Origin: a virus
Taxonomy: Duplodnaviria; Heunggongvirae; Uroviricota; Caudoviricetes
Length of the DNA stretch: 35,146 bases
IMG/VR virus record: IMGVR_UViG_2909309443_000004
Direction: 5' to 3' (one strand)
A program made the position numbers and the translations under genes. This document shows positions 1,252-34,007 of the stretch, piece after piece. The notes under the pieces were generated by a model. It saw nothing but the letters and a program-made list of their open reading frames with translations, was not told where the DNA came from and did no database searches. The first letter of the stretch is position 1. Every line of letters starts with the position of its first letter.

Positions 1252-1254
1252 CGT

Positions 1255-1449: not shown

Positions 1450-2096
1450 GCTGCACGCTCCCGCCCCTGGTTGTCTGTTGGTGACAGCGGAGCATTGCTG
1501 AATGCATTTGTTAATCTGGCAATATCCAATGCGTATCCAGGGTGTAGTTGCACTGCCGGGTCTTCGCACTGATTACCCCAAACATCGAAGCCATGAGACG
1601 ACTGGCGGGCGAACAGTTCAATGCGAGAAACATCGCCTAACAATTGCACAAGTTTTTCACGAACGACATCTGGTTTTCTTGAATGCTCAAGCCGCGGTGC
1701 GGTAAATGACTGAACGATCCCTGCATTAATGCGCGGAGGTAGTTTTCCCTTTACTGCAAACAGGCAATCTTCACTATTGGCGCGAGTCATGTGTCCCATA
1801 CCCATAACCAGTTTATCTGGTTGTCGACTACCACATTTTATCCATGTGAAGCCCTTCATGGTCATCAGACGGAATCCCCAGGCTTCAACAACTTTTAGCG
1901 CTTCGAGTGGTTGTGTTGGCACCCACCACATGGCCAACAGACAGTTTTCATCGGCCAAATCCCACACAGGAAGGCGGCAGATATCCATCACACTCATAAC
2001 CGGATATTTAAAACCGGCACCGCGATTACCATCTGCGGCTTTGTCCCGGTATACCCAGGGTGGATCTGCATAGATTAGTGTGTATTTCTTAGTCAT
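1446..2096 (-). CDS. N6-adenine DNA methyltransferase, MT-A70 family (orphan, no cognate nuclease seen)
   Basis: 216-aa ORF with DPPW catalytic motif (LIYADPPWVYRD) near N-terminus, characteristic of MT-A70/Dam-like phage methyltransferases. Confidence 0.8.
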   Translation of the reverse strand: MTKKYTLIYADPPWVYRDKAADGNRGAGFKYPVMSVMDICRLPVWDLADENCLLAMWWVPTQPLEALKVVEAWGFRLMTMKGFTWIKCGSRQPDKLVMGMGHMTRANSEDCLFAVKGKLPPRINAGIVQSFTAPRLEHSRKPDVVREKLVQLLGDVSRIELFARQSSHGFDVWGNQCEDPAVQLHPGYALDIARLTNAFSNAPLSPTDNQGRERAA

Positions 2097-2388
2097 AAAC
2101 CACCCCGCAACATCCTATACCGCTATAGTCGCCACGGCGAAGGCCGTTACCTTTTGTGATACATTGGTCCCTGCGAACCGCGATCCTTGCACGCTCAACA
2201 TCACCAGAAGCAACATCCATACACTGAAGCCAAAGGTGAGCGGCAATGCGGAACTGTCCTTTTTTCTCTCTTTCAATTGCGCGTTTTTCGATCTCTATCG
2301 CCGCAGGAGTAACGGCGACAATCTTTGACGGACTGCGCATTGAAACCTTGTTCATGTGATATTTTTCAAGTCGGCTTAACTTTCTCAC
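2089..2388 (-). CDS. Hypothetical protein
   Basis: 99-aa ORF in leftward early operon, 8-nt overlap with downstream methyltransferase start; no recognised domain. Confidence 0.4.
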   Translation of the reverse strand: MRKLSRLEKYHMNKVSMRSPSKIVAVTPAAIEIEKRAIEREKKGQFRIAAHLWLQCMDVASGDVERARIAVRRDQCITKGNGLRRGDYSGIGCCGVVYD

Positions 2389-2497
2389 TTAATCCAACCC
2401 TCTCTGAAAATTAATGCCAGCAGATAAAGCCATGCTGAAACAGAGGCCAGGAATAAGTACCATCCTGACCATTTGCTCCAGTGCCTTAGCAGCACAC

Positions 2498-2746
2498 TCA
2501 TGCAGCGTTGCTCACAGGACGATATACACGTTGCTGAACAGGAGGCTTTTTACCCTGGAACTCTGCCGGGCTTGCTGCCTGACGTTCATCAAGCCAACGC
2601 TCAACTTCATCACGGTTCCATGCGCAGCGTTTGTCAGTGATATACCAGCGTTTAGGAAATTCCCCTGCGCGCTCCATGCGGTCGATAGTGCTCCATGACA
2701 GTGGCACCACCGCCAGGAGTTCCTTCTTACCTAATGCACCTTTCAT
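2498..2746 (-). CDS. AlpA-family DNA-binding protein (putative excisionase/transcriptional regulator)
   Basis: 82-aa ORF; segment LSWSTIDRMERAGEFPKRWYITDKRCAWNRDEVERWL matches AlpA/Xis-type HTH pattern (..STIYR.. G.FP.. W...EV..WL). Confidence 0.7.
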   Translation of the reverse strand: MKGALGKKELLAVVPLSWSTIDRMERAGEFPKRWYITDKRCAWNRDEVERWLDERQAASPAEFQGKKPPVQQRVYRPVSNAA

Positions 2747-2795
2747 AAATACCTCTCTTGGTTGCAGTGCGGCGCGCGTGGCGCCGCGGTGGTGG

Positions 2796-3737
2796 TTACA
2801 TAGATGTTTCGTTTAATTCTTCTCGACGAACGCTGTAAACGTCGGTGGCTTTTGCCAGCAGTTCGTCATCATCTGAAAGTTTTTGTGCAATGTATTTGTA
2901 AGCTTTATCCAGTTCGAAGACAGTGCTGTAATTCATCGCTGCGCTGGTAAAGGCCATCAGCATTTCTTCTGGATCACGGCTATCCGCTTTACGCGTTTGC
3001 TCATCAGGCTTTTTCACTTGTTTAGCGTTGATCAGACTGTTCATTCCCGCAGCAGTGGTCGTTTGCGGAGTAATGTCTCGCTCAACGCGCGGTGCCGTTT
3101 CCTGTAATTCGTCTGGTGTGTAGACGCCCATGATTACGTCAGGACAGTGCAGGCGAGACCAGCGTTTTGTCGCAAGGTATGCGAGTTGTTGTTTCGGATC
3201 ACTGGCCCAAAGTGTGGAGTTTCTTACCTGTGCTTGAGACAGCATTAACTCAAGCACTCGAGGTTGATCCTCGCCCTTCATGGTTGCCCATACGCGAACA
3301 CCGCAGCCTTCTTCGTCTTTTAGAGTCCAGCCTGGTGCGATATATGGATTGCCGTTTTTGGATGTTTTCTCAACAAACTTACCGATCACGCGTTCCCACG
3401 GCCCGAACCACTCGTAGTTGATGCGATCTTTTGTTGGCGACATCGTTGAGATAACTGCGTTTACTAATTGGGCTTCATAACCTAGCGTGCCGTTCACAAC
3501 ATGGGTTTTCTGAGCCACGGCAAACGGGTTCATTCCCCACTGCGCAGCCTGCATTGCCACGGCCATGCAATCAGCTGGTTTCCCGGCGAGGTGCGCCGGT
3601 ACCGTTACGCGGCTTTGCGCCATTACCTCGGCGAATTTCATCAGTTGGTTCAAGCCGTCTGGGCTGAAAATAGTTGCAGCAGTTCCAGCGATTGCTGTGT
3701 CTACTGGTGCGTTGATGTTTGCGATGTCGTTGCTCAT
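2796..3737 (-). CDS. recT: RecT-family single-strand annealing recombinase
   Basis: Track ORF 2796..3764; ATG at 3737 overlaps stop of upstream exonuclease gene (ATGA). Sequence features of RecT family (..LWASDPKQQLAYLATKRWSRLHCPDVIMGV..). Confidence 0.85.
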   Translation of the reverse strand: MSNDIANINAPVDTAIAGTAATIFSPDGLNQLMKFAEVMAQSRVTVPAHLAGKPADCMAVAMQAAQWGMNPFAVAQKTHVVNGTLGYEAQLVNAVISTMSPTKDRINYEWFGPWERVIGKFVEKTSKNGNPYIAPGWTLKDEEGCGVRVWATMKGEDQPRVLELMLSQAQVRNSTLWASDPKQQLAYLATKRWSRLHCPDVIMGVYTPDELQETAPRVERDITPQTTTAAGMNSLINAKQVKKPDEQTRKADSRDPEEMLMAFTSAAMNYSTVFELDKAYKYIAQKLSDDDELLAKATDVYSVRREELNETSM

Positions 3738-4555
3738 ATGTACATATCCTGTTTGCGTGCCCACTCAGGGCGTTTAATGATTTCCACACCGCCCCATTCA
3801 TCATTGATGCGGCATTCGTGATAGGTATTCAGATCCCGGCGGAACAGAGCGTGCCCGGCATCGACATCCTGCGCATCCAGCTCGAACACGCGTACCGGAT
3901 ACCGACCACAATCAATGCTTTCGCTCACGGCAAGAAAGAAAAAACCATGCGGCTGACCAGTAACCCTCATTGCGCCTTCGCGGTACATTGCGTCCTGCAC
4001 GTGGTAGCGGAATTCCTCGATGTGGCGTGCAAAACGGTCCATATCTGCAACCTTTTTCACGTCGACGATTACGTTGTGCTCGTTCAGCCATTTGTCTGGA
4101 CGAATTCGGCACAACTCACCCGTCTCTTCATCGTTCCAGTACATTGATGCTTCGCAGTAACCAGGTGCTTCCAACATCCAGCGTGCCGCCGGATGAGCCA
4201 TTGCGCTATCACGCATCAGCTCCAGTTTTCGCCACTGCTCGACATCAAGTACCGTAATACCCATATCCGCCACATCACGAAGAAATGCTTCTTCGTCAGC
4301 TTTACCTTGTTTTGTCCGACGATCTAATTTCGGTGAAACGATGAAGCGTTTGTCGAATTCTCCAGGTTCCAGAAGCAGACAGTGCAATGCGGTTCCCATA
4401 TCCAGTGCAGACTTTTTCTCTTCGTCTTCTGGTGCTGCCTGAACCCATTTAAGAAGCGCCGGATTCTTGGCAACCATGTCCAGTTGCGACTTACTCACGC
4501 CGTCACCGGCGTGGTAGTCTTCGTTGCTGATGTCGAAATAAATTCCCGGTTTCAT
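3734..4555 (-). CDS. Putative exonuclease, PD-(D/E)XK fold (RecE C-terminal domain / exonuclease VIII-like), partner of RecT
   Basis: 273-aa ORF; N-terminal GIYFDISNEDYHAG motif and acidic/Lys catalytic-like residues (..VIVDVKK..) typical of phage PDDEXK exonucleases found beside RecT; start overlaps previous gene stop. Confidence 0.7.
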   Translation of the reverse strand: MKPGIYFDISNEDYHAGDGVSKSQLDMVAKNPALLKWVQAAPEDEEKKSALDMGTALHCLLLEPGEFDKRFIVSPKLDRRTKQGKADEEAFLRDVADMGITVLDVEQWRKLELMRDSAMAHPAARWMLEAPGYCEASMYWNDEETGELCRIRPDKWLNEHNVIVDVKKVADMDRFARHIEEFRYHVQDAMYREGAMRVTGQPHGFFFLAVSESIDCGRYPVRVFELDAQDVDAGHALFRRDLNTYHECRINDEWGGVEIIKRPEWARKQDMYI

Positions 4556-4851
4556 GCCGCGTCCCTCTGCCCATCAAGCTGATCAGCCAGATCCCAGCGC
4601 GCGATAATTGCCATTGCCTCGCGCCGGTAGGCATCCATCAGTTCTTCGAACTCAGGGCTGTCTTTAGCTGCTTCCAGCACTTCCTGGCGAACTCCTTTGC
4701 CTGTTACAACGTCGAAAGTTGAGGCCAGTTGATGAAGCCGGATGGTCTCAATCAGTTCAACTTGTCGGTCATATAGCTGTTCTGACAGGCGGTAGTCCTT
4801 GTCGAATGCCAGCATGATTTTTTGAAGATTTTTCTGCTGATTAACGTTCAT
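4552..4851 (-). CDS. Hypothetical early protein (~99 aa)
   Basis: Track ORF 4552..4866; probable start MNVNQQ at 4851 preceded by GGGAGGG Shine-Dalgarno; no recognised domain. Confidence 0.45.
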   Translation of the reverse strand: MNVNQQKNLQKIMLAFDKDYRLSEQLYDRQVELIETIRLHQLASTFDVVTGKGVRQEVLEAAKDSPEFEELMDAYRREAMAIIARWDLADQLDGQRDAA

Positions 4852-4853
4852 TA

Positions 4854-5006
4854 TCAGCCCTCCCATATCTCGTTATCGTTGGCCACATCGCGAGCTTCTT
4901 TGCTGACGAAAGCCCACTTAATGCCTTCCTGTAAGGTGCGGAACTTCCAGCTCATGAATCCGCATGCAGTAACGCAGTACCAACCGTTGATGATTTTCCA
5001 CTGCAT
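4854..5006 (-). CDS. Small Trp/Cys-containing protein (50 aa), first gene of leftward early operon
   Basis: Manually translated minus-strand ORF MQWKIINGWYCVTACGFMSWKFRTLQEGIKWAFVSKEARDVANDNEIWEG; below 60-aa track cutoff; lies immediately downstream of the two OL operator palindromes. Confidence 0.3.
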   Translation of the reverse strand: MQWKIINGWYCVTACGFMSWKFRTLQEGIKWAFVSKEARDVANDNEIWEG

Positions 5007-5025
5007 AACTTGTTACCTCGGTCTG

Positions 5026-5102
5026 TTACCGTTGAGGTAATAATTATGCTTATTTGGTTTGGTGTCAATAGATATGAGTTAAAAAAATTACCCGTAAGGT
5101 AA
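5026..5102. promoter_or_regulatory. OL-like operator pair: TTACCGTTGAGGTAA (5026-5040) and TTACCCGTAAGGTAA (5088-5102)
   Basis: Two perfect 5-bp inverted half-sites separated by 5 bp, located between repressor gene terminator and start of leftward early operon. Confidence 0.55.
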
Positions 5103-5111
5103 TCTATCTGG

Positions 5112-5137
5112 CAATAAAAAAGCCGCCATGAGGCGGC
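5112..5137 (-). terminator. Rho-independent terminator downstream of repressor gene
   Basis: Minus-strand hairpin GCCGCC-tcat-GGCGGC followed by TTTTTTATT, 20-45 nt after repressor stop codon. Confidence 0.55.
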
Positions 5138-5159
5138 TTACTTGCTGAAAACTATAGTT

Positions 5160-5744
5160 TTATTGTTTGCTTTTTTCGTTCTGGTTGATGACAAATTCAA
5201 TGTAACTTTCGATCTTTGCCTTCTCTGTTTCAGGTAACAATGCGTAGCGCGAGCGGTCATAGTTGATAGTCGCGGGGTCGTGCGGGTGAATCAGTAATTC
5301 ATATCCGTGACGCCCAAATGCGGATGCAACATTCTCCAGGGTGGAAATGGAAACGCTGACCTCATTGTTTAACAGGCGGCTGATTGTTACCTGGGCGACG
5401 CCGGATGCGCGGTGAAGTTTTCCCTGCGTTGAAAGGTCGCGGCTTTCGCTCATCCAGCGTTCCAGGTTGTGAGCCGCCAGTTGACCAATGTCGCTTGGTC
5501 CGACAGGCTGAAAACCTTCCTGAGAAAGCGAGCGATCGATATCAAGCCAGTTACGGGGTTTATTGGCGGCAGCTTCAATTTTTCGCGCAACCTGGTCGCC
5601 GATAACCTTCTTGCCAAGAGCCCAGCGGTTTACCAGATTTGCCTGAGTTCCAAGTTTTTCAGCCATCCGCGTCTGAACACCATTGAATTCACGGTCGATC
5701 AAGTCGTTGAGATTTTGCCTGCGGACGTCCTGGATACTTTTCAT
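5160..5744 (-). CDS. Prophage repressor (CI-like), HTH protein without recognisable S24 peptidase domain
   Basis: 194-aa ORF divergent from Cro-like gene; two HTH-like segments (GVQTRMAEKLGTQANLVNRWALGKK and LHRASGVAQVTISRLLNNEVSVSISTLENVASAF); no Ala-Gly/Ser-Lys LexA-like cleavage module evident. Confidence 0.7.
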   Translation of the reverse strand: MKSIQDVRRQNLNDLIDREFNGVQTRMAEKLGTQANLVNRWALGKKVIGDQVARKIEAAANKPRNWLDIDRSLSQEGFQPVGPSDIGQLAAHNLERWMSESRDLSTQGKLHRASGVAQVTISRLLNNEVSVSISTLENVASAFGRHGYELLIHPHDPATINYDRSRYALLPETEKAKIESYIEFVINQNEKSKQ

Positions 5745-5799
5745 TTTCTGGAAAATCGCCTCATATCTGAATCAGAAGATGATTCAATTTAAAGCAATA

Positions 5800-5862
5800 T
5801 TACCCAACAGGTAAATGCACCTCATGGGTAACTATCCTTGATTTTTGTTACCTTATAGGTGA
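5800..5862. promoter_or_regulatory. OR-like operator region: TTACCCAACAGGTAA (5800-5814) and TTACCTTATAGGTGA (5848-5862) between divergent repressor and cro-like genes
   Basis: Same palindrome family as OL; intergenic 154-bp region with AT-rich promoter-like hexamers (TTGATT ... TGAATAT). Confidence 0.55.
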
Positions 5863-5898
5863 ATATTTATTATCTGAAATAAATATCAGGCAATAGCT

Positions 5899-6129
5899 AT
5901 GAGCGATAACGGACATTTCGATTTCAAAAAGCACTGGCTTGCACTTACTCCGGATGAGCGTGAAGCCTTCGCACAGGAAGCCGGAACGACGAGTCACTAT
6001 ATCCAGACTCACTTAACAGGTAAGCGCAAAATGCCAGGTAAGGTATTGATGGATGGGCTTTTTAAAGCCTGTAAATCAAGACAATGGCTGCGCTCAAAAG
6101 CAGAACTGGCATACTTCTTCTACTCATGA
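5899..6129 (+). CDS. Cro-like small HTH regulator
   Basis: 76-aa ORF divergent from repressor; HTH-like segment EREAFAQEAGTTSHYIQTHLTGKRKMP. Confidence 0.6.
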   Translation: MSDNGHFDFKKHWLALTPDEREAFAQEAGTTSHYIQTHLTGKRKMPGKVLMDGLFKACKSRQWLRSKAELAYFFYS

Positions 6130-6184
6130 TATCCAGCCACAACCCTCTGTAGACCGCCATCCGGCGGTCTTTTCATATCTATTC

Positions 6185-6199
6185 GTACCTCAAGGGTAA
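6185..6199. promoter_or_regulatory. Operator-like palindrome GTACCTCAAGGGTAA
   Basis: One-mismatch member of TTACC-N5-GGTAA family, 80 bp upstream of the 6280 ATG. Confidence 0.4.
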
Positions 6200-6279
6200 T
6201 AAAAAACCAAATATGGTTGATCTTTTTTTTGTGTCAGCACAAAATAACCGTAATCCCAATACTAATAACAGGGCTTACC

Positions 6280-6480
6280 ATGGAAATCATTACACGTATT
6301 GATGCCGCAAAGCGCGGACTTAAACGCTACTACACCGGAAAAACATGTAAGCACGGACATGACAGTGAACGCTGGGTTTACAACGGACACTGTGTTGAGT
6401 GCACCATGGAATCAAACCGTCGTATCAGGGCAGAGATTAAGCAGATCATGATTAATTCCTCCCCACAACATTCAAGCTGA
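6280..6480 (+). CDS. Small Cys/His-rich protein (possible zinc-binding regulator), cII position
   Basis: Track ORF 6217..6480 (TTG); likely ATG at 6280 (MEIITRIDAAKRGLKRYYTGKTCKHGHDSERWVYNGHCVECT...); C-x-H-x-H ... C-x2-C arrangement. Confidence 0.45.
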   Translation: MEIITRIDAAKRGLKRYYTGKTCKHGHDSERWVYNGHCVECTMESNRRIRAEIKQIMINSSPQHSS

Positions 6481-6495
6481 TAGCGGAGATTAATC

Positions 6496-7311
6496 ATGAG
6501 CAGACATGCAACAGATTGGGCCTGGGAGACAGATCCAGGTAGCTCGTCATTAAAGCTCATACTGCTCTCGATGGCTGACAGAGCCGATGAATATAACCTC
6601 TGCTACCCCAGCATAGAACGCCTCGTTAAAGACACTTGCCTGAATAAAAAAACCGTGCAGGCCGGACTTATATCGCTCATGAAAATGGGGCTTATTTCAG
6701 ATACCGGGGAGAGAAAGGGAGCGACAAAAAGAGTGCGGGTTTTCTCTCTTAATATAACCAAAAACGGGAACATTAAAGGCAACCGAGAGGGGGGCAATGA
6801 ACCCGAAAACGGTAATGTTACCGAAAACGGGAATATACCCAAAAACGGGATGTTGAATGATCCCAAAAACGGGATGTTGAATGATCCCAAAAACGGGATC
6901 CAGAACCAGTCATATAACCAGTCATTTAACCAAGAGAGGGAGAGCAGGACAAAAAACGGGGATTCTGTGCATCATGACCCCGGCGCAAACAACGCCGTGA
7001 TGAATAACTTTGTTCCTCCTGGTGGGCCAGGGCAATTAGGCAAATTTGTCATGCATGAACAATGGCAGCCATCAGATGACTTTCTTCGGAAAAGCTCATT
7101 GCAGGGGATCTACCTGGACAGTCTGCCAACGGCACAGGAACTTGCAGAGTTCAGAATTTACTGGATGGCTGAGGGTAAGGCATACCATCAGGCACAGTGG
7201 GAGCAGAAGCTGGCAAGGCGGCTGCAGATTAGCAGACAGAAGCAATCAACATTACCTGATAACAACGTTCCGCACTGGAACAGCCCTGAAGCATGGGAGG
7301 ATTTCTTGTGA
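6496..7311 (+). CDS. Replication initiator, lambda O-like N-terminal HTH domain with DnaT-like C-terminal region
   Basis: 271-aa ORF; N-terminus (..LKLILLSMADRADEYNLCYPSIERLVKDTCLNKKTVQAGLISLMKMGLI..) typical of phage replisome organiser HTH; contains iteron array in linker. Confidence 0.7.
   Translation: MSRHATDWAWETDPGSSSLKLILLSMADRADEYNLCYPSIERLVKDTCLNKKTVQAGLISLMKMGLISDTGERKGATKRVRVFSLNITKNGNIKGNREGGNEPENGNVTENGNIPKNGMLNDPKNGMLNDPKNGIQNQSYNQSFNQERESRTKNGDSVHHDPGANNAVMNNFVPPGGPGQLGKFVMHEQWQPSDDFLRKSSLQGIYLDSLPTAQELAEFRIYWMAEGKAYHQAQWEQKLARRLQISRQKQSTLPDNNVPHWNSPEAWEDFL
6757..6903. repeat. Iteron array (putative phage origin of replication) inside initiator gene: ~6 copies of CCAAAAACGGGA-like unit, including an exact 24-bp tandem duplication
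   Basis: Direct repeats accaaaaacgggaacatt / cccgaaaacggtaatgtt / accgaaaacgggaatata / cccaaaaacgggatgttgaatgat (x2) / cccaaaaacgggatcc; encode KNGN/ENGN peptide repeats. Confidence 0.65.
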
Positions 7312-8093
7312 ACAACGTTTTTACCGCGATACAAAACCGTGACGGAGAAGCCCTTTCTCGCATGTCAGGTTATGAGCATCAGTACACCAACAATGACAAC
7401 GTAGTGAACATGTCAGCAGAGAGGCTTGTTGATGCCCTTTTCAAACAGTTGAAACAACTGTTTCCGGCGGCAGTGGTAACCAACCTGAAGACGCCAGAGC
7501 AGGAAGTTGCTGCAAAACAGCAGTGGATTGCTGCGTTTGCCGAAGGGGGGATCCGAACCCGTGAACAGGTTTCTGCTGGTATGCGCCACGCCCGCGCCAG
7601 TGAATCTCCGTTCTGGCCGTCGCCAGGGCAATTTATCAAGTGGTGTAAAGACAGCAAGATGGTTCTTGGCGTCACCATTGACGATGTGATGGCGGAGTTT
7701 CACCGGTACAGCAAGGAAAAAAGTTTATATCCTGGTGGTCCCGAAAGATTCCCGTGGCGGCATCCGGTTATGTACTGGGTCGTATGTGATACACGCCGTG
7801 CAATGTATCAGCGCCAGCTTAGCGAGATTGAGGTTGAGAAACACGCGCGCAGGCTGCTCGATGATTGGGCGAAAAAGGTGGCTTCCGGACAGCAGATACC
7901 CGATCCGGTGATCAGCATACAGGCAAAGCCAGAGCCCATGAGTACGCCTCCGGACACAGGGAGAGACGTTTACCATCCACCAGGGCGAAGTTTCGGGTGC
8001 ATGCCTAACGCCGCCACCCTTGGGGGAATAACACCGGCGCAGTGGCTGATGGAGGAATACAGGCGGGGAAAGGCGGCAGGATTTATCAAGTAA
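7293..8093 (+). CDS. Replication protein P-like helicase loader (lambda P family)
   Basis: Segment FPAAVVTNLKTPEQEVAAKQQWIAAFAEGGIRTREQVSAGMRHARASESPFWPSPGQFIKWCKD closely parallels lambda P (..QWVLAFRENGITTMEQVNAGMRVARRQNRPFLPSPGQFVAWCRE..); alternative GTG start at 7308 overlapping O-like stop. Confidence 0.85.
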   Translation: MGGFLVNNVFTAIQNRDGEALSRMSGYEHQYTNNDNVVNMSAERLVDALFKQLKQLFPAAVVTNLKTPEQEVAAKQQWIAAFAEGGIRTREQVSAGMRHARASESPFWPSPGQFIKWCKDSKMVLGVTIDDVMAEFHRYSKEKSLYPGGPERFPWRHPVMYWVVCDTRRAMYQRQLSEIEVEKHARRLLDDWAKKVASGQQIPDPVISIQAKPEPMSTPPDTGRDVYHPPGRSFGCMPNAATLGGITPAQWLMEEYRRGKAAGFIK

Positions 8094-8130
8094 TACCAGC
8101 GCGATAGCGCATTTTTTTACGTCTATATGA

Positions 8131-8207
8131 TTACCTGGAAGGTAATAAAATGTTCTAATCTCTATTGATTTCATGTCTTATGTGGTTTTTAATTACCTAA
8201 GGGGTAA
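8131..8207. promoter_or_regulatory. Operator pair TTACCTGGAAGGTAA (8131-8145) and TTACCTAAGGGGTAA (8193-8207) upstream of 8211 ORF
   Basis: Two perfect TTACC-N5-GGTAA palindromes in 117-bp intergenic region after P-like gene. Confidence 0.5.
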
Positions 8208-8210
8208 ATC

Positions 8211-8523
8211 ATGAGAAAACAGATACAGGCTCTTGGTCGACTCAAAACAGGCCAGATGAACAAAACAGAATCTGCGTATTGCCAGCACCTTGAGCTGCGT
8301 AAACGTGCAGGGGAAATCGCCTGGTATCGATTCACCATCAGTGCCTGCAACACCAGAAGTTCAGGCAGCACCACAGGAGCAGGATGCCGCCGTTGTTGAT
8401 GCCCGCGACGAAGAAACTCGTCGCCGTCGCGCTGCTGCTGGTCGTAGTTCTACGCTGCTTACCGGTTCTCAGGGCGACACATCAACCGCTAATACCAGCG
8501 GTAAAACGCTGCTTGGTCAGTAA
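8211..8523 (+). pseudogene. Probable gene remnant / deletion scar: DUF1064-like N-terminal fragment (8211-~8330) joined out of frame to a Gly/Ser/Arg-rich C-terminal ORF (8290-8523)
   Basis: 8211 ORF begins MRKQIQALGRLKTGQMNKTESAYCQHLELRKRAGEIAWYRF (resembles N-terminus of phage DUF1064 proteins) then loses protein-like sequence; second frame ends ...RRRRAAAGRSSTLLTGSQGDTSTANTSGKTLLGQ; no intact product. Confidence 0.3.
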
Positions 8524-8537
8524 CCGGAGTCATTGAA

Positions 8538-10217
8538 ATGGCGGAAACAACTAAAGAGCGATTGAACAAACAGTTCGCACAACTTGAAAGCGAGCGTCAG
8601 TCGTTCGAGCCGCACTGGCGCGAGTTGAGTGATTACATCAACCCGCGTGGTTCCCGCTTTCTGACTTCTGAGGTCAACCGTAACGATCGACGCAATACAC
8701 GCATTATTGATTCGACCGGGACTATGGCGGCGCGCACTCTCGCCAGCGGCATGATGTCAGGCATCACAAGCCCCGCGCGTCCGTGGTTTCGCCTGGCTAC
8801 GCCAGATCCTGAAATGATGGATTATGGCCCTGTTAAGTTGTGGCTTGAGGCGGTGCAGAACCGCATGAACGATATGTTCAATAAGTCGAATCTCTATCAG
8901 TCGCTGCCGCAGTTATACGGAAGCCTCGGCACATACAGCACTGGCGCAATGGCGGTGCTGGAGGATGACGAGGACATCATTCGTACAATGCCATTCCCGA
9001 TAGGAAGTTACTACCTGGCTAACTCACCTCGTGGCAGTGTGGACACCTGTTTTCGCAAGTTCTCTATGACTGTTCGTCAGCTTGTTCAGGAGTTCGGGCT
9101 AAATAACGTCAGCGAATCCGTAAAAAGCATGTGGGAAAGCGGCACCTACGAGAAGTGGATTGACGTGATGCATTCGGTTTACCCGAACATTGACCGCGAT
9201 ACATCGAAGCTGGATAGCAAGAACAAGCCATTCAAATCGGTTTATTACGAGGTTGGTGGCGATAACGACAAGTTGTTGCGTGAGTCCGGATTTGATGAGT
9301 TTCCAATTATGGCTCCGCGCTGGGAAGTTAACGGCGAAGATGTTTATGGATCATCATGCCCGGGTATGCTGGCGCTTGGAGCTGTTAAGGCATTGCAGCT
9401 TCTCCAGAAGCGCAAGTCGCAGTTGATTGATAAAGCCACCAATCCGCCGATGGTTGCTCCGACTTCCCTCAAGAATCAGCGTGCCTCCCTTCTTCCTGGC
9501 GACATCACGTATATCGATCAGATTACTGGTCAGGATGGTTTCAGGCCTGCTTATCTGGTTAACCCCAGTACAGCAGATTTGGTGGCAGACATTCAGGACA
9601 CTCGTCAAATCATTAACAGCGCCTACTTTGTCGATCTGTTCATGATGTTGCAGAACATCAATACCCGCTCGATGCCTGTTGAAGCGGTGATCGAAATGAA
9701 AGAAGAAAAACTTCTGATGTTGGGGCCGGTTCTGGAGCGTCTGAACGACGAATGTCTTAACCCTCTCATTGACCGCGCTTTCTCGATGATGGTGCGTAAA
9801 AACATGCTGCCGCCACCGCCTGACGCGATGGAAGGTATGCCCCTGAAGGTCGAATACATTTCCGTCATGGCTCAGGCGCAGAAGTCTATCGGCCTGTCCA
9901 GTCTGGCGTCCACGGTTAACTTCATTGGTCAACTTGCGCAAGCGAAACCAGAAGCTCTCGACAAACTCAACGTTGATCAGGCGATCGATGCATTCGCTGA
10001 TATGTCCGGAGTGTCTCCAACCGTCATTGTTCCGCAGGAACAGGTTGAGCAGGCTCGCCAGCAACGGGCACAGCAACAACAGCAGCAACAAATGATGGCG
10101 ATGGGGATGGCGGCGGCACAGGGTGCCAAGACGCTAAGCGAAGCTAAAACTTCGGATCCGAGTGTTTTGTCAGCTATGGCGAATGCAGTTAGTGGTCAGG
10201 GTGGGCAATCACAATGA
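8538..10217 (+). CDS. Portal (head-to-tail connector) protein, T7 gp8-like
   Basis: 559-aa ORF at head of structural module; Gln-rich/Met-Ala-rich C-terminus (QQRAQQQQQQQMMAMGMAAAQGA...) as in T7 gp8; followed by scaffold and capsid genes. Confidence 0.8.
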   Translation: MAETTKERLNKQFAQLESERQSFEPHWRELSDYINPRGSRFLTSEVNRNDRRNTRIIDSTGTMAARTLASGMMSGITSPARPWFRLATPDPEMMDYGPVKLWLEAVQNRMNDMFNKSNLYQSLPQLYGSLGTYSTGAMAVLEDDEDIIRTMPFPIGSYYLANSPRGSVDTCFRKFSMTVRQLVQEFGLNNVSESVKSMWESGTYEKWIDVMHSVYPNIDRDTSKLDSKNKPFKSVYYEVGGDNDKLLRESGFDEFPIMAPRWEVNGEDVYGSSCPGMLALGAVKALQLLQKRKSQLIDKATNPPMVAPTSLKNQRASLLPGDITYIDQITGQDGFRPAYLVNPSTADLVADIQDTRQIINSAYFVDLFMMLQNINTRSMPVEAVIEMKEEKLLMLGPVLERLNDECLNPLIDRAFSMMVRKNMLPPPPDAMEGMPLKVEYISVMAQAQKSIGLSSLASTVNFIGQLAQAKPEALDKLNVDQAIDAFADMSGVSPTVIVPQEQVEQARQQRAQQQQQQQMMAMGMAAAQGAKTLSEAKTSDPSVLSAMANAVSGQGGQSQ

Positions 10218-10510
10218 CAGATTACGAAGATGATCAACTGAAAGAAGAAAACGCCCGTAAGCAACGTGACATGGCACAGCGTGAAATTGATGACATTCGC
10301 TTTGTCATGAGCAGTGAACAGGGGCGTCGCGTTGTCTGGTCGGTGCTGGAGAAAGGCCGTGTGTTTTCCGCTATCTCACCGATGGACGCTATGGCAATGG
10401 CATTTAATGAGGGGCAACGCAATCTGGCGCTGGAACTGTTTCAGCGCGTTATGGCGCATTGCCCTGAACAGTATTTGAAGATGGCCAAAGAGGCCAGTGA
10501 ACAGGAGTGA
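10214..10510 (+). CDS. Hypothetical head-assembly protein
   Basis: 98-aa ORF, ATG overlaps portal stop (ATGA); between portal and scaffold. Confidence 0.5.
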   Translation: MTDYEDDQLKEENARKQRDMAQREIDDIRFVMSSEQGRRVVWSVLEKGRVFSAISPMDAMAMAFNEGQRNLALELFQRVMAHCPEQYLKMAKEASEQE

Positions 10511-10512
10511 TC

Positions 10513-11208
10513 ATGAATTTATTTGAGCGTTTGCTGTATCGCCGTCTTTGCAATGAGCAACCAGTCGATGGTGGAGCAGCTCCGGCTGCGTCAGAACCGT
10601 CAGCGCCTGCAGGTGATAACCCTGCTCCAGTTGGTGATCCATCACAATCGGAAGGTGATAAGCCACAACCTGTTGCTGATGGCGATAAACCTGCTGATGA
10701 CAAAAAGCCTGAAAGCGATAAGCAGGGTGAAAAAAAGGACGGCGATAAACCGGATGGTGCGCCGGAGAAGTACGAGTTTCAGGCTGCCGAAGGCGTAGAG
10801 CTGGATACAGAAGCGTTAAAGGAATTCGAGCCGGTGGCGCGAGAACTAAACCTGACCAACGAGCAAGCGCAAAAGCTGGTTGATGCTTATCCGAAGATTC
10901 TGGCAGGTGTTCAGCAGCGCCAGGCAGAAGCCTGGCAGAAAACAACCGAGCAGTGGGCTGCGGATGTAAAAGCTGACAAAGAAATCGGTGGCGACAAGTT
11001 GATTTCTAACCTTAGCTCCGCACAGCGTGCGCTTGACCAGTTCGGGACACCTGAACTCAAAGAATATCTGAACACCACCGGGCTGGGTAATCACCCTGAT
11101 CTGGTCAAAACGTTCGTGAAAATCGGAAAGGCGATGTCTGAAGATGGCATGGTCACCGGTGGTAATGAAGGCCAGCGTAGTGCGGCCGAAGTGCTCTATG
11201 GCAAATAA
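10513..11208 (+). CDS. Scaffolding protein (acidic, low-complexity N-terminus)
   Basis: Track ORF 10507..11208; ATG 10513 follows AGGAG; Asp/Lys/Pro-rich repeats (GDKPQPVADGDKPADDKKPESDKQGEKKDGDKPDG) then helical C-terminus; position between portal and capsid. Confidence 0.65.
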   Translation: MNLFERLLYRRLCNEQPVDGGAAPAASEPSAPAGDNPAPVGDPSQSEGDKPQPVADGDKPADDKKPESDKQGEKKDGDKPDGAPEKYEFQAAEGVELDTEALKEFEPVARELNLTNEQAQKLVDAYPKILAGVQQRQAEAWQKTTEQWAADVKADKEIGGDKLISNLSSAQRALDQFGTPELKEYLNTTGLGNHPDLVKTFVKIGKAMSEDGMVTGGNEGQRSAAEVLYGK

Positions 11209-12085
11209 GAGAGGAGATAACAATGGCTGTTAAAGGCTTAACTGCGCTAACGCTGGCTGACTGGGGTAAGCGCGTCGATCCAAATGGGAAAGTCGATAAG
11301 ATTATCGAGCTTCTCAATCAAACTAACCCAATTCTTCAGGATATGCCTTTTGTTGAAGGAAACCTTCCTACCGGACACCGAACCACCATTCGTTCTGGTT
11401 TACCTTCTGCTACCTGGCGTTTGCTGAACTATGGCGTACAGCCAAGCAAATCAACCACAGTGCAGGTCACCGATTCCATTGGCATGCTGGAAACCTATGC
11501 TGAAGTCGATAAGTCTCTGGCTGATCTGAACGGTAATACTGCCGAATTCCGTCTGTCTGAAGACCGAGCATTTATTGAAGCGATGAATCAGGCGATGGCG
11601 CAGACACTGTTTTACGGTGATTCCAGCGTTAACCCTCAGCAGTTTATGGGACTGTCCTCCCGCTATTCCAGCCTGTCTGCGGGTAATGCTCAGAACATCA
11701 TTGATGCTGGTGGCACGGGTACAGATAACACTTCAATCTGGTTAGTGGTGTGGGGCGAAAACACCGTGCATGGCATCTTCCCGAAAGGACAGAAGGCTGG
11801 CATTCAGATGGAAGATAAAGGCCAGGTGACACTGGAAGATGCTAATGGCGGCAAGTACGAAGGTTATCGTACCCATTATAAGTGGGACAACGGGCTGACA
11901 TTACGTGACTGGCGCTATGTAGTTCGTATCGCAAACATCGATGTCAGCAATCTTTCAGAACCTTCCTCTGCCGCAAATATTGCGAAGTTGATGGTTAAAG
12001 GTAAGCGTAAACTGACCGCCGTATGTAGCCATCAGACGAGAATTGGTAACTTAGACGCCCATCTGATATAGACGGACATCTAAGT

Positions 12086-12511
12086 ATGGAATTACAGGAC
12101 TGGCGAAAAGAACCTCGTAAAAACTATTCGAATGAATTCAAACTTCGTATGGTGGAACTGGCATCACAACCTGGAGCTTGTGTTGCACAGATTGCACGTG
12201 AAAATGGCGTCAATGATAATGTTATTTTCAAATGGCTCAGGCTCTGGCAGAACGAAGGGCGTGTTTCGCGGCGTCTTCCGGTAACGACCTCTTCTGACAC
12301 TGGCGTTGAATTATTACCTGTAGAAATAACGCCGGATGAGCAGAAAGAACCTGTGGCGGCCATTGCGCCGTCTTTATCCACTTCCACTCAGACCAGAGTC
12401 AGTGCCAGTTCCTGCAAGGTGGAATTCCGTCACGGTAACATGACGCTGGAAAATCCATCGCCAGAGCTGCTCACAGTGTTGATCCGTGAACTGACCGGGA
12501 GGGGAAGATGA
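12086..12511 (+). CDS. IS66-family accessory protein TnpA (orfA)
   Basis: 141-aa ORF, HTH-like N-terminus (SNEFKLRMVELASQPGACVAQIARENGVNDNVIFKWLRLW); first ORF of IS66-type element. Confidence 0.8.
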   Translation: MELQDWRKEPRKNYSNEFKLRMVELASQPGACVAQIARENGVNDNVIFKWLRLWQNEGRVSRRLPVTTSSDTGVELLPVEITPDEQKEPVAAIAPSLSTSTQTRVSASSCKVEFRHGNMTLENPSPELLTVLIRELTGRGR

Positions 12512-12858
12512 TCTCACTCCCATCAGGTACCCGTATCTGGCTCGTTGCCGGCGTTACCGATATGCGTAAATCCTTCAACGGACTGGGAGAACAGGTACAA
12601 CATGTGCTGAATGATAATCCCTTCTCCGGTCACCTGTTTATCTTCCGTGGCCGACGGGGTGACACCGTCAAAATTCTTTGGGCTGATGCTGATGGTCTGT
12701 GCCTGTTCACCAAACGCCTGGAGGAAGGCCAGTTTATCTGGCCTGCGGTACGTGACGGCAAGGTATCCATTACCCGCTCGCAACTGGCAATGCTCCTCGA
12801 TAAGCTGGACTGGCGTCAGCCAAAAACATCCAGCCGTAACTCACTGACAATGTTGTAA
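12508..12858 (+). CDS. IS66-family accessory protein TnpB (orfB)
   Basis: 116-aa ORF MISLPSGTRIWLVAGVTDMRKSFNGL..., overlapping orfA stop (ATGA), typical IS66 Orf2. Confidence 0.8.
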   Translation: MISLPSGTRIWLVAGVTDMRKSFNGLGEQVQHVLNDNPFSGHLFIFRGRRGDTVKILWADADGLCLFTKRLEEGQFIWPAVRDGKVSITRSQLAMLLDKLDWRQPKTSSRNSLTML

Positions 12859-12888
12859 AAAACTCCTGACCGCATTATAAAAACGGTC

Positions 12889-14502
12889 ATGAGTCAGAAA
12901 TACCTCATTCGCATCGCAGAGCTGGAAAGGTTGCTCTCTGAGCAGGCTGAAGCCCTCCGTCAGAAAGACCAGCAACTGAGTCTGGTTGAAGAGACGGAAG
13001 CCTTCCTGCGCTCTGCACTGACACGTGCCGAAGAAAAGATCGAAGAAGATGAACGGGAAATAGAACATCTGCGGGCTCAGATAGAAAAACTGCGCCGGAT
13101 GCTGTTCGGTACCCGTTCTGAAAAACTGCGTCGTGAAGTTGAACTGGCTGAGGCTCTGCTGAAACAACGTGAACAGGACAGCGATCGTTACAGTGGGCGG
13201 GAAGACGATCCTCAGGTTCCCCGCCAGTTGCGACAGTCGCGCCATCGTCGTCCGTTACCGGCACACCTTCCCCGTGAAATACACCGCCTGGAGCCAGAAG
13301 AAAGCTGTTGCCCGGAGTGTGGCGGTGAGCTGGATTATCTGGGGGAAGTCAGCGCTGAACAGCTGGAACTGGTGAGCAGTGCCCTGAAAGTGATCCGCAC
13401 AGAACGGGTAAAAAAAGCCTGTACAAAATGTGACTGTATTGTTGAAGCACCGGCGCCGTCCCGCCCGATAGAGCGTGGTATCGCGGGCCCCGGATTACTT
13501 GCCCGCGTGTTAACGGGAAAATACTGCGAACATCTGCCACTGTATCGTCAGAGTGAAATCTTTGCCCGCCAGGGTGTCGAACTGAGCCGGGCCTTACTCT
13601 CCAACTGGGTTGACGCGTGCTGCCAGTTAATGACACCGGTGAATGATGCCCTGTACCGTTATGTAATGAACACCCGCAAGATTCACACTGATGACACACC
13701 GGTAAAGGTACTGGCACCGGGTCAGAAAAAGGCGAAAACAGGGCGTATCTGGACGTATGTCCGGGATGATCGCAATGTGGGTTCGTCATCTCCTCCAGCG
13801 GTCTGGTTCGCGTACTCGCCGAACCGGCAGGGGAAACACCCGGAGCAACACCTCCGCCCCTTCCGGGGTATCCTGCAGGCGGATGCGTTCACAGGTTACG
13901 ACAGGTTGTTCAGTGCAGAACGTGAAGGTGGTGCACTGACAGAAGTTGCGTGCTGGGCCCATGCCCGGCGAAAAATCCACGATGTATACATCAGCAGCAA
14001 AAGTGCGACGGCAGAAGAAGCACTGAAGCGAATCAGTGAACTGTACGCCATCGAGGATGAAATACGGGGATTACCGGAGTCAGAGCGTCTTGCCGTCAGG
14101 CAGCAGCGAAGCAAAGTGTTACTGACGTCGCTGCATGAATGGATGGTGGAGAAGAATGGTACGCTGTCGAAAAAATCCAGACTGGGCGAAGCGTTCAGCT
14201 ATGTACTGAATCAGTGGGATGCCCTCTGTTATTACAGTGATGACGGTCTGGCGGAGGCGGATAATAATGCTGCGGAAAGAGCGCTTCGTGCAGTCTGTCT
14301 CGGAAAGAAAAACTTTATGTTCTTTGGCAGCGATCACGGCGGCGAGCGTGGAGCACTGTTGTACGGGCTGATCGGCACCTGCCGTCTGAACGGTATCGAT
14401 CCGGAAGCGTATCTGCGCCATATCCTGAGCGTACTGCCGGAATGGCCTTCCAACCGAGTTGATGAACTCCTGCCATGGAACGTAGTACTCACCAATAAAT
14501 AA
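12889..14502 (+). CDS. IS66-family transposase (orfC)
   Basis: 537-aa ORF with N-terminal coiled coil/leucine zipper, CxxC zinc motifs (CCPECGGEL...CTKCDC) and DDE-type core. Confidence 0.85.
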   Translation: MSQKYLIRIAELERLLSEQAEALRQKDQQLSLVEETEAFLRSALTRAEEKIEEDEREIEHLRAQIEKLRRMLFGTRSEKLRREVELAEALLKQREQDSDRYSGREDDPQVPRQLRQSRHRRPLPAHLPREIHRLEPEESCCPECGGELDYLGEVSAEQLELVSSALKVIRTERVKKACTKCDCIVEAPAPSRPIERGIAGPGLLARVLTGKYCEHLPLYRQSEIFARQGVELSRALLSNWVDACCQLMTPVNDALYRYVMNTRKIHTDDTPVKVLAPGQKKAKTGRIWTYVRDDRNVGSSSPPAVWFAYSPNRQGKHPEQHLRPFRGILQADAFTGYDRLFSAEREGGALTEVACWAHARRKIHDVYISSKSATAEEALKRISELYAIEDEIRGLPESERLAVRQQRSKVLLTSLHEWMVEKNGTLSKKSRLGEAFSYVLNQWDALCYYSDDGLAEADNNAAERALRAVCLGKKNFMFFGSDHGGERGALLYGLIGTCRLNGIDPEAYLRHILSVLPEWPSNRVDELLPWNVVLTNK

Positions 14503-14799
14503 GCGTCAATACGGTGCTCCGTTGACGCTTACGTTAAAGCACTGCATCGCATTCCAAACCGTGGCATGGGTCGCCCGGTGTTCTACATGAACCGCACTGT
14601 AGGCCAGGCTCTTGATCTGCAATCTCTGGAGAAAACATCTCTGGCTATCAGCGTAAAAGAGACTGAAGGCGAGTGGTGGACTTCATTCCGTGGTGTACCA
14701 ATCCGTGAAACTGATGCGCTTCTGGAAACAGAAGCCCGCGTGGTGTAACGCCTGTTATTAACCTGTGGGTCGTAACAGACCCACTAATGGAGAAAGAAG

Positions 14800-16562: not shown

Positions 16563-18733
16563 TGGCTATCAGTTGGATCCAGCCCAGCTTTGCCGGTGGT
16601 GAGATTGGACCGTCGTTGTACGGACGTATCGACATGGCGAAGTACCAGGTGGCATTGCGCAAGTGCGATAACTTTATCGTGCGGCAGTATGGCGGCGTTG
16701 AGAATCGACCTGGTACGCGTTTTGTCGGTGCCGCCAAATACCCAAATCGGAAATGCCGCCTGATACCGTTCCAGTTCTCGACGGTTCAGACTTATGCTCT
16801 GGAGTTCGGACACCAGTACATGCGCGTTATCAAAGATGGTGCGTTGGTGCTGAACAGCAGCAATGTTATTTATGAAATTGCCACGCCATATACTGAAGCC
16901 GATCTGTTCCGAATTAAATTCACGCAAAGCGCAGACGTGCTTACGCTGGTTCATCCGGCATACCCGCCGAAAGAGTTGCGTCGCTATGCGCATGACAACT
17001 GGCAACTGGTTGATGTGGTAACGAAGAACGGACCATTTGAAGATATCAATATTGACGAGTCAGTGACGGTTTATGCCAGCGCCAGCACCGGGACAATTAC
17101 GTTAACGGCAAGCGCCTCTATTTTTGGCGCGGAGCAGGTAGGCAAATTGTTCTATCTGGAACAGCCTGCAGTGGATTCAGTGCCGGTATGGGAAACCAGT
17201 AAGAGTACGTCGATTGGCGATATTCGCCGTGCAGACAGTAACTACTATCGCGCCGTTACAGCAGGCAAAACAGGTACTTTGCGCCCTTCGCATACAGAAG
17301 GCACATCATGGGATGGCTGGGGCGGATCCGGTGATGATGATACTGGCATTGAGTGGGAATATCTGCACAGTGGTTTTGGCATTGCCCGTATCACTGCTGC
17401 AAATGGAACTACTGCAACTGCCGAGGTGATTTCCTATATCCCTTCGCAGGTAGTTGGCGAGGATAATGCCAGCTATAAATGGGCTAAATATGCCTGGAAC
17501 AGTGTTAATGGTTATCCTGGCACTGTTGTTTATTATCAACAACGTCTTTACTTCGCCGCATCGACTGCGTTCCCTCAGACTATCTGGGCTAGCCGTACCG
17601 GGGATTATAAGGATTTTGGCAAAAGCAATCCTACGCAGGATGACGACAGAATTATCTACACCTATGCCGGGCGTCAGGTTAATGAGATCCGCCACCTGAT
17701 TGATGTCGGTTCGCTGGTGGCACTGACTTCCGGAGGTGAGTACGTCATCACCGGCGACCAGAACAAAGTGTTAACCCCATCATCATTTGCATTCAGCTCT
17801 CAGGGATCAAATGGCTCGAGCAATGTCCCACCAATTGCCGTGGCGAATATTGCTCTGTTCGTCCAGGAGAAAGGCAGTGTTGTCCGTGATCTGGCCTACT
17901 CATTCGATGTTGACGGCTATCAGGGGAACGACCTGACCATCCTTGCCAATCATCTTTTTCAGAAGCACAGCATTGTTGACTGGTGCTTCTCTATTGTCCC
18001 TTACTCCAGCGCCTTCTGCATTCGTGATGACGGTAAATTACTGGTGATGACCTATTTGCGTGATCAGCAGGTTTTTGCATGGGCACCACAATCCAGTACC
18101 GGAAAATATGAAAGCACATGCAGTATCAGCGAAGGAAATGAAGATGCGGTGTATTTCGTTGTTAACCGAACCGTTAACGGGCAAACAGTGAGATACATCG
18201 AGCGACTGTCCAGCCGTTTATTTACCAGCGATGAAGATGCTTTCTTTGTTGATTCTGGCCTTAGCTATGATGGAAGAAATACGTCTGACAGAACGATGAC
18301 CATCACTGGTGGTTCTGGCGAATGGGATTACCGCGCGGAATATACAATCAGTATTTCTGGTGGTGCGTACTTCACCAGTAGTGATGTCGGTGCGCAACTA
18401 CAGTTCCCTTATACCGGCGCTGATTTATCTACCGGTAACGCGCTGGATATATTTGGTGACACTGCTCAGTTTGGCGCTCTTGATTCGCTGACGACGGTGA
18501 ATAACGCGCAACGCGAGGCTTACGGTTATCAGGTTCAGGCTGCCAACTATAAAGCAGAAGCCAGTTCAGCCCGTAAACAGGGGAATGTGGGAGCAGCAAC
18601 AACATTGCTCACTGCGCCTCTGAAGGCATACGGTGCGTACCAGATGTTTGGTGGGACGTGGAGTCCGTTTACTCAAAGCACCCCTGCGCCAATCGGGGCA
18701 GCAGCAGGAACCAGATTACCCGGAGGATTATAA
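16562..18733 (+). CDS. Tail tubular protein B / nozzle (T7 gp12-like)
   Basis: 723-aa ORF, start overlaps previous stop; size, position and beta-rich sequence consistent with podovirus gp12. Confidence 0.6.
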   Translation: MAISWIQPSFAGGEIGPSLYGRIDMAKYQVALRKCDNFIVRQYGGVENRPGTRFVGAAKYPNRKCRLIPFQFSTVQTYALEFGHQYMRVIKDGALVLNSSNVIYEIATPYTEADLFRIKFTQSADVLTLVHPAYPPKELRRYAHDNWQLVDVVTKNGPFEDINIDESVTVYASASTGTITLTASASIFGAEQVGKLFYLEQPAVDSVPVWETSKSTSIGDIRRADSNYYRAVTAGKTGTLRPSHTEGTSWDGWGGSGDDDTGIEWEYLHSGFGIARITAANGTTATAEVISYIPSQVVGEDNASYKWAKYAWNSVNGYPGTVVYYQQRLYFAASTAFPQTIWASRTGDYKDFGKSNPTQDDDRIIYTYAGRQVNEIRHLIDVGSLVALTSGGEYVITGDQNKVLTPSSFAFSSQGSNGSSNVPPIAVANIALFVQEKGSVVRDLAYSFDVDGYQGNDLTILANHLFQKHSIVDWCFSIVPYSSAFCIRDDGKLLVMTYLRDQQVFAWAPQSSTGKYESTCSISEGNEDAVYFVVNRTVNGQTVRYIERLSSRLFTSDEDAFFVDSGLSYDGRNTSDRTMTITGGSGEWDYRAEYTISISGGAYFTSSDVGAQLQFPYTGADLSTGNALDIFGDTAQFGALDSLTTVNNAQREAYGYQVQAANYKAEASSARKQGNVGAATTLLTAPLKAYGAYQMFGGTWSPFTQSTPAPIGAAAGTRLPGGL

Positions 18734-33881: not shown

Positions 33882-34007
33882 TTTCCGGTGACGGTATATA
33901 AAACGGTACGGTGAAAATCAGGTTGCAGAAAGTTGTTATCAGTCAATTGGTTATGGTATCCGTAAATAATTGAGTGGGAATGATTTGACCCTGCACTATG
34001 AATGAAC

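Follow-up and report, generated by a model that had tools for sequence, protein, structure and literature searches.

Apparent loss of the terminase module at a deletion junction in a defective Uetakevirus prophage of Escherichia coli

Background

Why should an integrated phage that keeps its integrase, replication, portal and lysis genes have no recognizable terminase, and why do its replication and portal genes lie so close together? These questions are raised by a 35,146-nucleotide stretch of DNA (IMG/VR record IMGVR_UViG_2909309443_000004), the whole of which is called the window below, and which represents a phiV10/epsilon15-like (Uetakevirus) prophage of an enterotoxigenic-type Escherichia coli, inserted at guaA. 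An earlier note, made from the letters of the sequence, had placed the end of the gene for replication protein P at 8093 and the start of the portal gene at 8538, and had proposed that a deletion removed the nin-like and late-regulator region together with both terminase subunits. Both boundaries are correct; the interval between them is 444 bp, not 445 bp as had been counted. In the present study, we compared this interval with intact relatives, and we conclude that position 8332/8333 is almost certainly the scar of a deletion that removed the terminase module.

The junction and the missing DNA

Alignment with intact relatives had been proposed as the way to define the endpoints, and it was made with phage phiV10 (NC_007804.2) and with the intact EC21 prophage (NZ_CM169480.1, locus L004); both place them at 8332/8333. 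By BLAST, phiV10 26927-35272 corresponds to window 1-8333 and phiV10 3372-7040 to window 8332-12000; on the junction side, collinearity with phiV10 is broken at 8332/8333 only, with a 2-bp overlap; taken over both alignments, the flanks overlap by 1-2 bp. At this point codon 41 of the DUF1064 gene is joined straight to codon 6 of p06, the small gene that precedes the portal gene. The parental sequences around the junction are unrelated apart from a shared 'TC'. The flanks are collinear with an intact relative and abut without foreign DNA; the very short sequence that they share is accompanied by no insertion sequence, attachment site or long repeat, and a truncated gene lies on each side, the two in different frames. 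The earlier note had described 8211-8523 as a deletion scar. A scar does exist there, but it is a single point inside that span, and 8094-8210 is the unaltered native control region between P and DUF1064, collinear with phiV10.

In prophage order, phiV10 carries P, DUF1064, accessory genes, p55, the genes of the small and large terminase subunits (TerS and TerL; the record ends between p55 and TerS), p03, p04, p06 and the portal gene. The DNA missing from the window corresponds to phiV10 35273-39104 and 1-3371 (3,832 + 3,371 = 7,203 bp). Compared with the EC21 prophage, 7,702 bp is missing (L004 2299-10000, with 2298 joined to 10001), an interval that holds the rest of DUF1064, ead/Ea22-like, DUF7739, DUF551 and ASCH genes, a p55-like regulator, TerS, TerL, a Gp49-family gene, a tRNA-Arg gene and, from p06, the ribosome-binding site and codons 1-5. 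The number of lost nin-like accessory genes is 8-11. Searches of the phiV10 proteins against PHROGs confirmed TerS (PHROG 51) and TerL (PHROG 2) and classified p55 as a transcriptional regulator. When all proteins of the deleted interval were compared with the window by tblastn, DUF1064 residues 1-41 and p06 residues 6-68 were detectable and nothing else. These alignments bear out the proposed loss of the nin-like and late-regulator region with both terminase subunits, and add the Gp49-like gene and tRNA-Arg to it. The nin-like region is mosaic among the relatives, so that both the lost size, 7.2-7.7 kb, and the list of lost genes are estimates.

Terminase genes and distribution of the junction

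The absence of a terminase from the window was upheld by every search made. By tblastn, the best match of phiV10 TerS and TerL to the window had an E value of 0.56. When the large or unplaced open reading frames (ORFs) of the window were scanned with Pfam and PHROG, they returned tail, head, virion, anti-repressor and tail-fibre families and no terminase family. The Prokaryotic Genome Annotation Pipeline (PGAP) likewise lists no terminase in E. coli strain E8, in which this region is identical. In all functional relatives inspected, TerS and TerL lie upstream of p06 and the portal gene, and this module is absent from the corresponding place in the window. The earlier note had named two observations that would speak against a deletion, namely intact phages with the same short junction and a terminase gene to the left of the integrase. 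Neither was made: no phage record among the 36 that match runs across the junction, all matches beginning at 8332, and the prophage is bordered by guaA on the left and by yfgI and yfgH on the right, with no phage genes beyond it.

The P gene lies near the portal gene in 16 of 550 complete E. coli genomes that have this portal region. In 15 of these 16, which are independent assemblies from different laboratories, the identical junction is found in one aligned piece, and the IMG/VR viral contig L077 carries it as well. Among the 550 genomes the junction is confined to one clonal group. Its base-exact endpoints could serve as a lineage marker for this enterotoxigenic-type group of E. coli. In each of the 15 genomes, the P-to-portal query matched one place only, which indicates that no second Uetakevirus prophage is present; thus, no cognate terminase would be available from such a source.

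Contents of the P-to-portal interval

The features of the interval and of the related loci are collected in Table 1. The note had described an operator-bearing promoter in this interval. Two copies of the palindrome ATTACC-N5-GGTAAT are present in 8094-8210, as was claimed for the operators; the promoter was not detected by a consensus scan and remains a plausible candidate for the DUF1064 operon, read from the sequence, whose -10 element overlaps the second operator-like site. The scan of 7900-8700 for consensus promoters and terminators returned nothing: there was no sigma-70 promoter, the TTGATT-17-TTTAAT pair falling below its criteria, and the stem of the hairpin at 8099-8118 is below the length that the terminator scan needs, hence it was not reported there. 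A hairpin matching it had been annotated by the authors of the phiV10 record.

The 40-codon DUF1064-like fragment that was said to lose its coding character is real. The product of 8211-8333 is 95% identical to residues 1-41 of phiV10 p45 (tblastn E 1e-22), and beyond 8333 the reading is out of frame, with 21 codons before a stop at 8399. In the resulting 62-amino-acid junction ORF, PHROG 190 is matched by the N-terminal 42 residues only. Pfam matched neither junction ORF, and PHROGs were needed to place them. The full-length DUF1064 protein of EC21 passes the Pfam model (PF06356) with 31.4 bits against a cutoff of 24.7, and the 62-amino-acid ORF does not; the window carries a fragment of the gene.

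The Gly/Ser/Arg-rich, out-of-frame ORF tail that had been noticed before the portal gene also exists, and it is p06. The product of 8332-8523 is 100% identical to residues 6-68 of p06, a conserved protein of 68 residues, and covers positions 8-70 of the 70 of PHROG 831. The deletion took the start codon and ribosome-binding site of p06 with it, and the frame of what is left differs from that of the DUF1064 remnant. PGAP annotates 8326-8523 as a 65-amino-acid 'hypothetical protein' (WP_047608207.1) that starts at a non-canonical ATC codon. Because the remnant has neither its own start codon nor its own ribosome-binding site, WP_047608207.1, a truncated remnant of p06, is probably not a real gene product, and annotators should treat it with caution.

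Table 1. Coordinates of the features of the interval, of the rest of the window and of related loci (window positions unless another record is named)
Feature	Position	Strand	Basis and remarks
Replication protein P gene, intact, last gene before the interval	7293..8093	+	ORF list; collinear with phiV10 p44; PGAP 'replication protein P'
Weak terminator-like hairpin GCGC-GATA-GCGC followed by T7, native intergenic	8099..8118	+	equals phiV10 35038-35057 'putative rho-independent terminator', by fixed coordinate offset
Operator-like palindrome ATTACCTGGAAGGTAAT, perfect match to the motif	8130..8146	not applicable	motif search
Candidate promoter TTGATT-17 nt-TTTAAT for the DUF1064 operon	8165..8193	+	read from the sequence
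Second operator-like palindrome ATTACCTAAGGGGTAAA, 1 mismatch	8192..8208	not applicable	motif search
DUF1064 gene, 5' remnant, codons 1-41 of 114	8211..8333	+	tblastn with phiV10 p45; PHROG 190; PGAP pseudogene 'missing C-terminus'
Deletion junction, 2-bp 'TC' common to both parental sequences	8332..8333	not applicable	BLAST and base-by-base alignment
Small pre-portal gene (phiV10 p06/epsilon15 gp3 homologue), 3' remnant, codons 6-68 and stop	8332..8523	+	tblastn; PHROG 831
Portal protein gene, intact	8538..10217	+	Pfam PF12236 Head-tail_con, E 4e-188; 98.7% identical to phiV10 portal
IS66-family element (PGAP: ISEc23) in the major capsid gene, 7-bp duplication GTTAAAG	12001..14532	+	gap in phiV10 collinearity at 7034-7040; E8 PGAP annotation
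Junction of 1,296-bp deletion (phiV10 10926-12221) between 13-bp direct repeats TACCGGNGCTGAT	18412..18424	+	BLAST; sequence view
attR core ATTGAGTGGGAATGATT, right end of the prophage, followed by host yfgI and yfgH	33969..33985	+	core from PMC9782041
202-amino-acid HNH ORF	L006 4628-5236 = TUM9803 NZ_CP135671.1 1612840-1613448		also in L007 and 9 viral or metagenome loci
Break event, window deletion	DUF1064 nt 122/123 (window 8332)		joined to p06 codon 6
Break event, deletion in IMG/VR contig L128	DUF1064 nt ~130 (L128 1388)		joined inside the DUF551 gene; in no complete genome
Break event, deletion in CEA601S	DUF1064 nt 144 (NZ_CP166713.1, L003 4355)		joined into the tRNA-Arg gene, 'TA' overlap
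Break event, inversion in P15-25 and two other genomes	DUF1064 nt 141-146 (L008 4417, L204 27272)		both reciprocal junctions kept
Break event, metagenome contig L187	DUF1064 nt 158		abutted by the end of a multicopy element, probably an insertion sequence

Identity and further lesions of the prophage

BLAST aligned the window with phiV10 in four collinear blocks at 97-98% identity, and the best phage matches were Uetakevirus members only. The similarity and collinearity to the type member that mark Uetakevirus are thus seen in the window. The block from the integrase to DUF1064 and most of the block from the portal to the virion protein genes are about 98% identical in nucleotides to phiV10/epsilon15 and fully collinear; divergence from phiV10 is greater in the tail-fibre and lysis region (about 82% identity). 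The window shares with both phages the attP core and the guaA site, and with phiV10 also the order of the repressor, replication and structural genes. Unlike phiV10, it is without TerS, TerL and p55, has an insertion of an IS66-family element in the capsid gene, a 1.3-kb deletion in the tail genes and a different C-terminus of the tail fibre, and has no oac gene. The EC21 prophage shares 99.5% identity with the window from p06 up to and including the portal region, and 97.7% over the replication genes up to DUF1064; its P-to-portal distance is 8,147 bp against 444 bp in the window.

The first gene of the window is the integrase, which adjoins host guaA, and its last part is host yfgI/yfgH. This layout is the same as in the chromosome of strain E8 and close to that of the O6:H16 strain 2011EL-1370-2. 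The attachment core ATTGAGTGGGAATGATT has been published for phiV10, epsilon15 and ZX5 (PMC9782041). It is present at both prophage ends in strain E8, and the prophage of the window is integrated through it at the 3' end of guaA, as is characteristic of Uetakevirus. With the terminase module missing, the element is a defective Uetakevirus derivative and not a functional member.

Two further lesions damage structural genes of the prophage. The IS66-family element has the ends GTAAGCG...CGCTTAC and carries tnpA, tnpB and transposase ORFs at 12086-14502. The 1,296-bp deletion has removed one gene for an internal virion protein completely and has joined the tail protein in frame to the C-terminal end of another such protein; the resulting ORF at 16562-18733 begins with a match to PHROG 376 (tail) and continues with one to PHROG 418 (internal virion protein). 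The sister strain 2011EL-1370-2 shares both deletions, lacks the IS66-family insertion, and has instead later lesions of its own, an IS100 in the tail fibre gene and another deletion of 1.9 kb. Thus, the two shared deletions are the older lesions and the insertions are recent and strain-specific. The integrase, both attachment cores, and the repressor, replication and lysis genes look intact in the window. To judge from this gene content, immunity would survive and excision perhaps as well, and particle formation would not.

A second large deletion in the structural region is present in every other prophage with a breakpoint in DUF1064. It runs from a peptidase gene to a tail gene in CEA601S (L003), from an ead-like gene to a p12 homologue in P15-25 (L204), and from p06 nt 148 to a tail protein gene in L128. 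Multi-hit decay seems to be common in this prophage family.

Clustered breakpoints in the DUF1064 gene

We searched 5,426 genomes with a 622-nt query composed of the last 160 nt of P and DUF1064. It matched in 529, and 42 of the matches were truncated, 41 of which are explained by the window junction (15), the CEA601S deletion (1), an inversion of the P15-25 type (3) and an alternative allele with an HNH endonuclease gene (22). A scan of contigs with an exact 43-nt pattern (DUF1064 nt 43-85) gave 194 loci, 120 on viral contigs, a set biased towards intact prophages, and 74 on metagenome contigs; it added two new break events and one copy of the window junction. In all, five independent structural events break the 345-nt DUF1064 gene at nt 122-158, a stretch of 36 nt, and no break event elsewhere in the gene was seen in about 720 sequences. 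The probability that five events fall within 36 nt of the 260-nt detectable range is about 0.002, a rough and post hoc estimate. The two events that were found after the idea had been written down both lie within a 55-nt zone, for which the chance is about 0.045.

All of the deletions keep the P-proximal side to within about 30 nt of nt 150 and have a partner kilobases away, and every event keeps the P-proximal side, the distal side being lost or rearranged. The P15-25 inversion implies a clean break at nt 141-146, because both reciprocal junctions are kept there. The CEA601S prophage resembles that of the window in having a DUF1064-to-terminase deletion with a 2-bp microhomology at the junction and in being otherwise degraded; unlike the window, it is joined into the tRNA-Arg gene, lacks 7,229 bp and has an intact p06. 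Its deletion is a separate event, since the endpoints differ and the prophage is 2.4% diverged on the left side. Two physical causes of the hotspot were considered. The folding of the single-stranded DNA of DUF1064 is unremarkable (z = -0.11), which leaves a hairpin or cruciform unsupported. A pac site is normally located in or beside terS. As terS is 4.5 kb away, a pac site inside DUF1064 is rated unlikely.

The alternative allele is identical to the standard DUF1064 sequence through nt 153 and then diverges sharply up to the stop codon. It is followed, through an ATGA overlap, by an ORF for 202 amino acids, which PGAP did not annotate, leaving a stretch of 660 bp empty. This ORF matches PHROG 1271 ('HNH endonuclease', E 3.7e-23) and 11 further HNH PHROGs. 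The Pfam model HNH_3 gives 18 bits, below its cutoff of 24.8, and the translated sequence shows an HH...N...CxxC motif. In each of the 11 loci where it occurs, the ORF is intact. The allele was found in 22 of the 529 E. coli genomes (about 4%) and in 9 of the 194 contig loci. Deposited phages have only distant homologues of the ORF (at most 32% identity), and Uetakevirus phages have none. The extra DNA of the allele gave no RNA family in an Rfam scan. The gene is thus present sporadically among near-identical genomes, next to a recoded flanking target, a pattern expected for what would be a free-standing homing endonuclease gene beside a recoded and immune target. The recoded neighbouring stretch and the sporadic distribution are shared with free-standing phage homing endonucleases such as the T4 Seg and Mob proteins and zinc-ribbon HNH nickases (PMC3592412, PMC13096335), and endonuclease cuts are known to drive rearrangements. 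Unlike in those systems, the activity, target and homing of the HNH protein of the relatives are putative, and the window does not contain its gene.

Origin of the deletion

We propose that the terminase module was lost by illegitimate joining at a 2-bp microhomology in an integrated phiV10-like prophage, which would have excised about 7.2 kb (by comparison with phiV10) or about 7.7 kb (by comparison with EC21). The rest of DUF1064, 8-11 nin-like genes, the p55 regulator, TerS, TerL, the Gp49-like gene and tRNA-Arg would have gone in this step. Since a phage without terminase cannot package its DNA, the deletion must have arisen in the prophage state, and it would then have been inherited vertically in one E. 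coli lineage. The resulting element keeps its integrase, both attachment cores, and its repressor, replication and lysis genes, and would have lost DNA packaging. No evidence that contradicts the deletion was found. The loss of the packaging function is read from gene content, and the terminase search covered the window, no search for terminases of unrelated prophages elsewhere in the host having been made. A deletion would explain why the prophage cannot make infectious particles; as found, this matters little, and it is ordinary prophage decay, a new instance of a known phenomenon. Its nearest precedents are the cryptic prophages of E. coli K-12, such as DLP12, Rac and Qin, and the defective prophage pool of O157 Sakai (PMC2669165). 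Unlike lambdoid siphovirus cryptic prophages, the element in the window is a podovirus of the Uetakevirus type with base-exact deletion endpoints. Like them, it has been inactivated stepwise by deletions and insertion sequences, with integration, immunity and some lysis genes kept.

That the short junction is the natural architecture of a helper-dependent phage or satellite without terminase is very improbable. Such an element could well keep an integrase, both attachment cores, a repressor, replication genes, a portal gene and lysis genes, as the window does, and defective prophages can sometimes be mobilised with help from other prophages (PMC2669165). However, two truncated gene remnants meet out of frame at the junction, the junction occurs in none of 36 phage records and, among 550 portal-carrying genomes, in one clonal group only, an insertion sequence divides the capsid gene of this same window, in which a tail gene is also truncated, and different further lesions accumulate in sister strains. 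Satellites similar to phage-inducible chromosomal islands have a compact and intact gene set under selection and a dedicated means of redirecting helper packaging, features that the window does not show; the out-of-frame remnants, together with the other broken essential genes, led us to reject this identity. Still more remote is an artefact of assembly or collapse of the sequence. Nothing in its favour was found, and the repeats at the junction do not exceed 2 bp, too little to make an assembly collapse. As the junction is identical in 15 complete genomes, which come from different laboratories, and also in a viral contig, it cannot readily be ascribed to assembly.

A further possibility, which refines the origin of the deletion and does not deny it, is that the event began with a break or nick made at a specific site of DUF1064, around nt 141-150, with the HNH endonuclease as the likeliest agent. 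We consider this possible, though unlikely, and the same holds for the details that it would need, a trimming of about 20 nt followed by the 2-bp microhomology join to p06. The confinement of five independent events to nt 122-158, the assignment of 41 of 42 truncated matches to three junction types and the HNH allele, and the two estimates of chance given above all point in this direction. So does the allele itself, which diverges from nt 153-154, adjoining the breakpoints, and is followed by an intact HNH ORF. The asymmetry of the events is consistent with a nick: replication runs from oriC to ter and the E8 record is in the orientation of MG1655, so that the fork would cross the prophage in the + direction of the window, and a nick may leave the P-proximal arm as a one-ended free end. 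However, the events are only five and their clustering was partly noticed afterwards; breakpoints further left, inside P, were outside the detection of the searches, and the insertion-sequence event in L187 is not explained by an endonuclease cut. The unremarkable folding of the DUF1064 DNA also gives no support. The HNH protein is a predicted nuclease whose cleavage and target are putative. Furthermore, the prophage of TUM9803 that carries the HNH gene has the repressor protein of the window prophage (WP_000836293.1), so that this gene is expected to be silent in a lysogen that is immune; the 15 genomes with the window junction and the 22 with the HNH allele do not overlap. The full scenario, in which an HNH homing endonuclease cuts DUF1064 at nt ~141-150 and mis-repair yields deletions and inversions in lysogens free of the endonuclease, is slightly more doubtful again. 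If it were true, a selfish endonuclease belonging to one phage would time and again domesticate or kill the prophages of related phages. This would provide a concrete and testable mechanism for repeated crippling at one spot, and would link phage-versus-phage conflict to prophage decay.

Other features of the window

The 17-bp palindrome ATTACC-N5-GGTAAT, of which two copies lie in the control region before DUF1064, is found at 12 places in the window, where 0.78 would be expected by chance. The sites are at 5025, 5087, 5799, 6184, 8130, 8192, 26948, 27988, 28081 and 29201, with weaker ones at 18715 and 32412. Nearly all are intergenic and lie beside the repressor gene, ahead of the DUF1064 operon and of the tail-fibre gene, and around the anti-repressor region; those at 5025-6200 flank the repressor and cro-like genes. 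The palindrome is probably the repressor operator, and in that case several operons would be under direct control of the repressor. A literature search on the operators of epsilon15 and phiV10 and on this defective prophage found nothing usable. In the anti-repressor region, an ORF resembling DUF1778/TacA-type antitoxins (27640-27948, - strand) overlaps the start of the BRO-N anti-repressor gene (27030-27758, - strand), with no toxin partner annotated beside it. Just outside attR, the host gene yfgH (34766-35146, - strand) carries the annotation of a pseudogene with an internal stop in strain E8.

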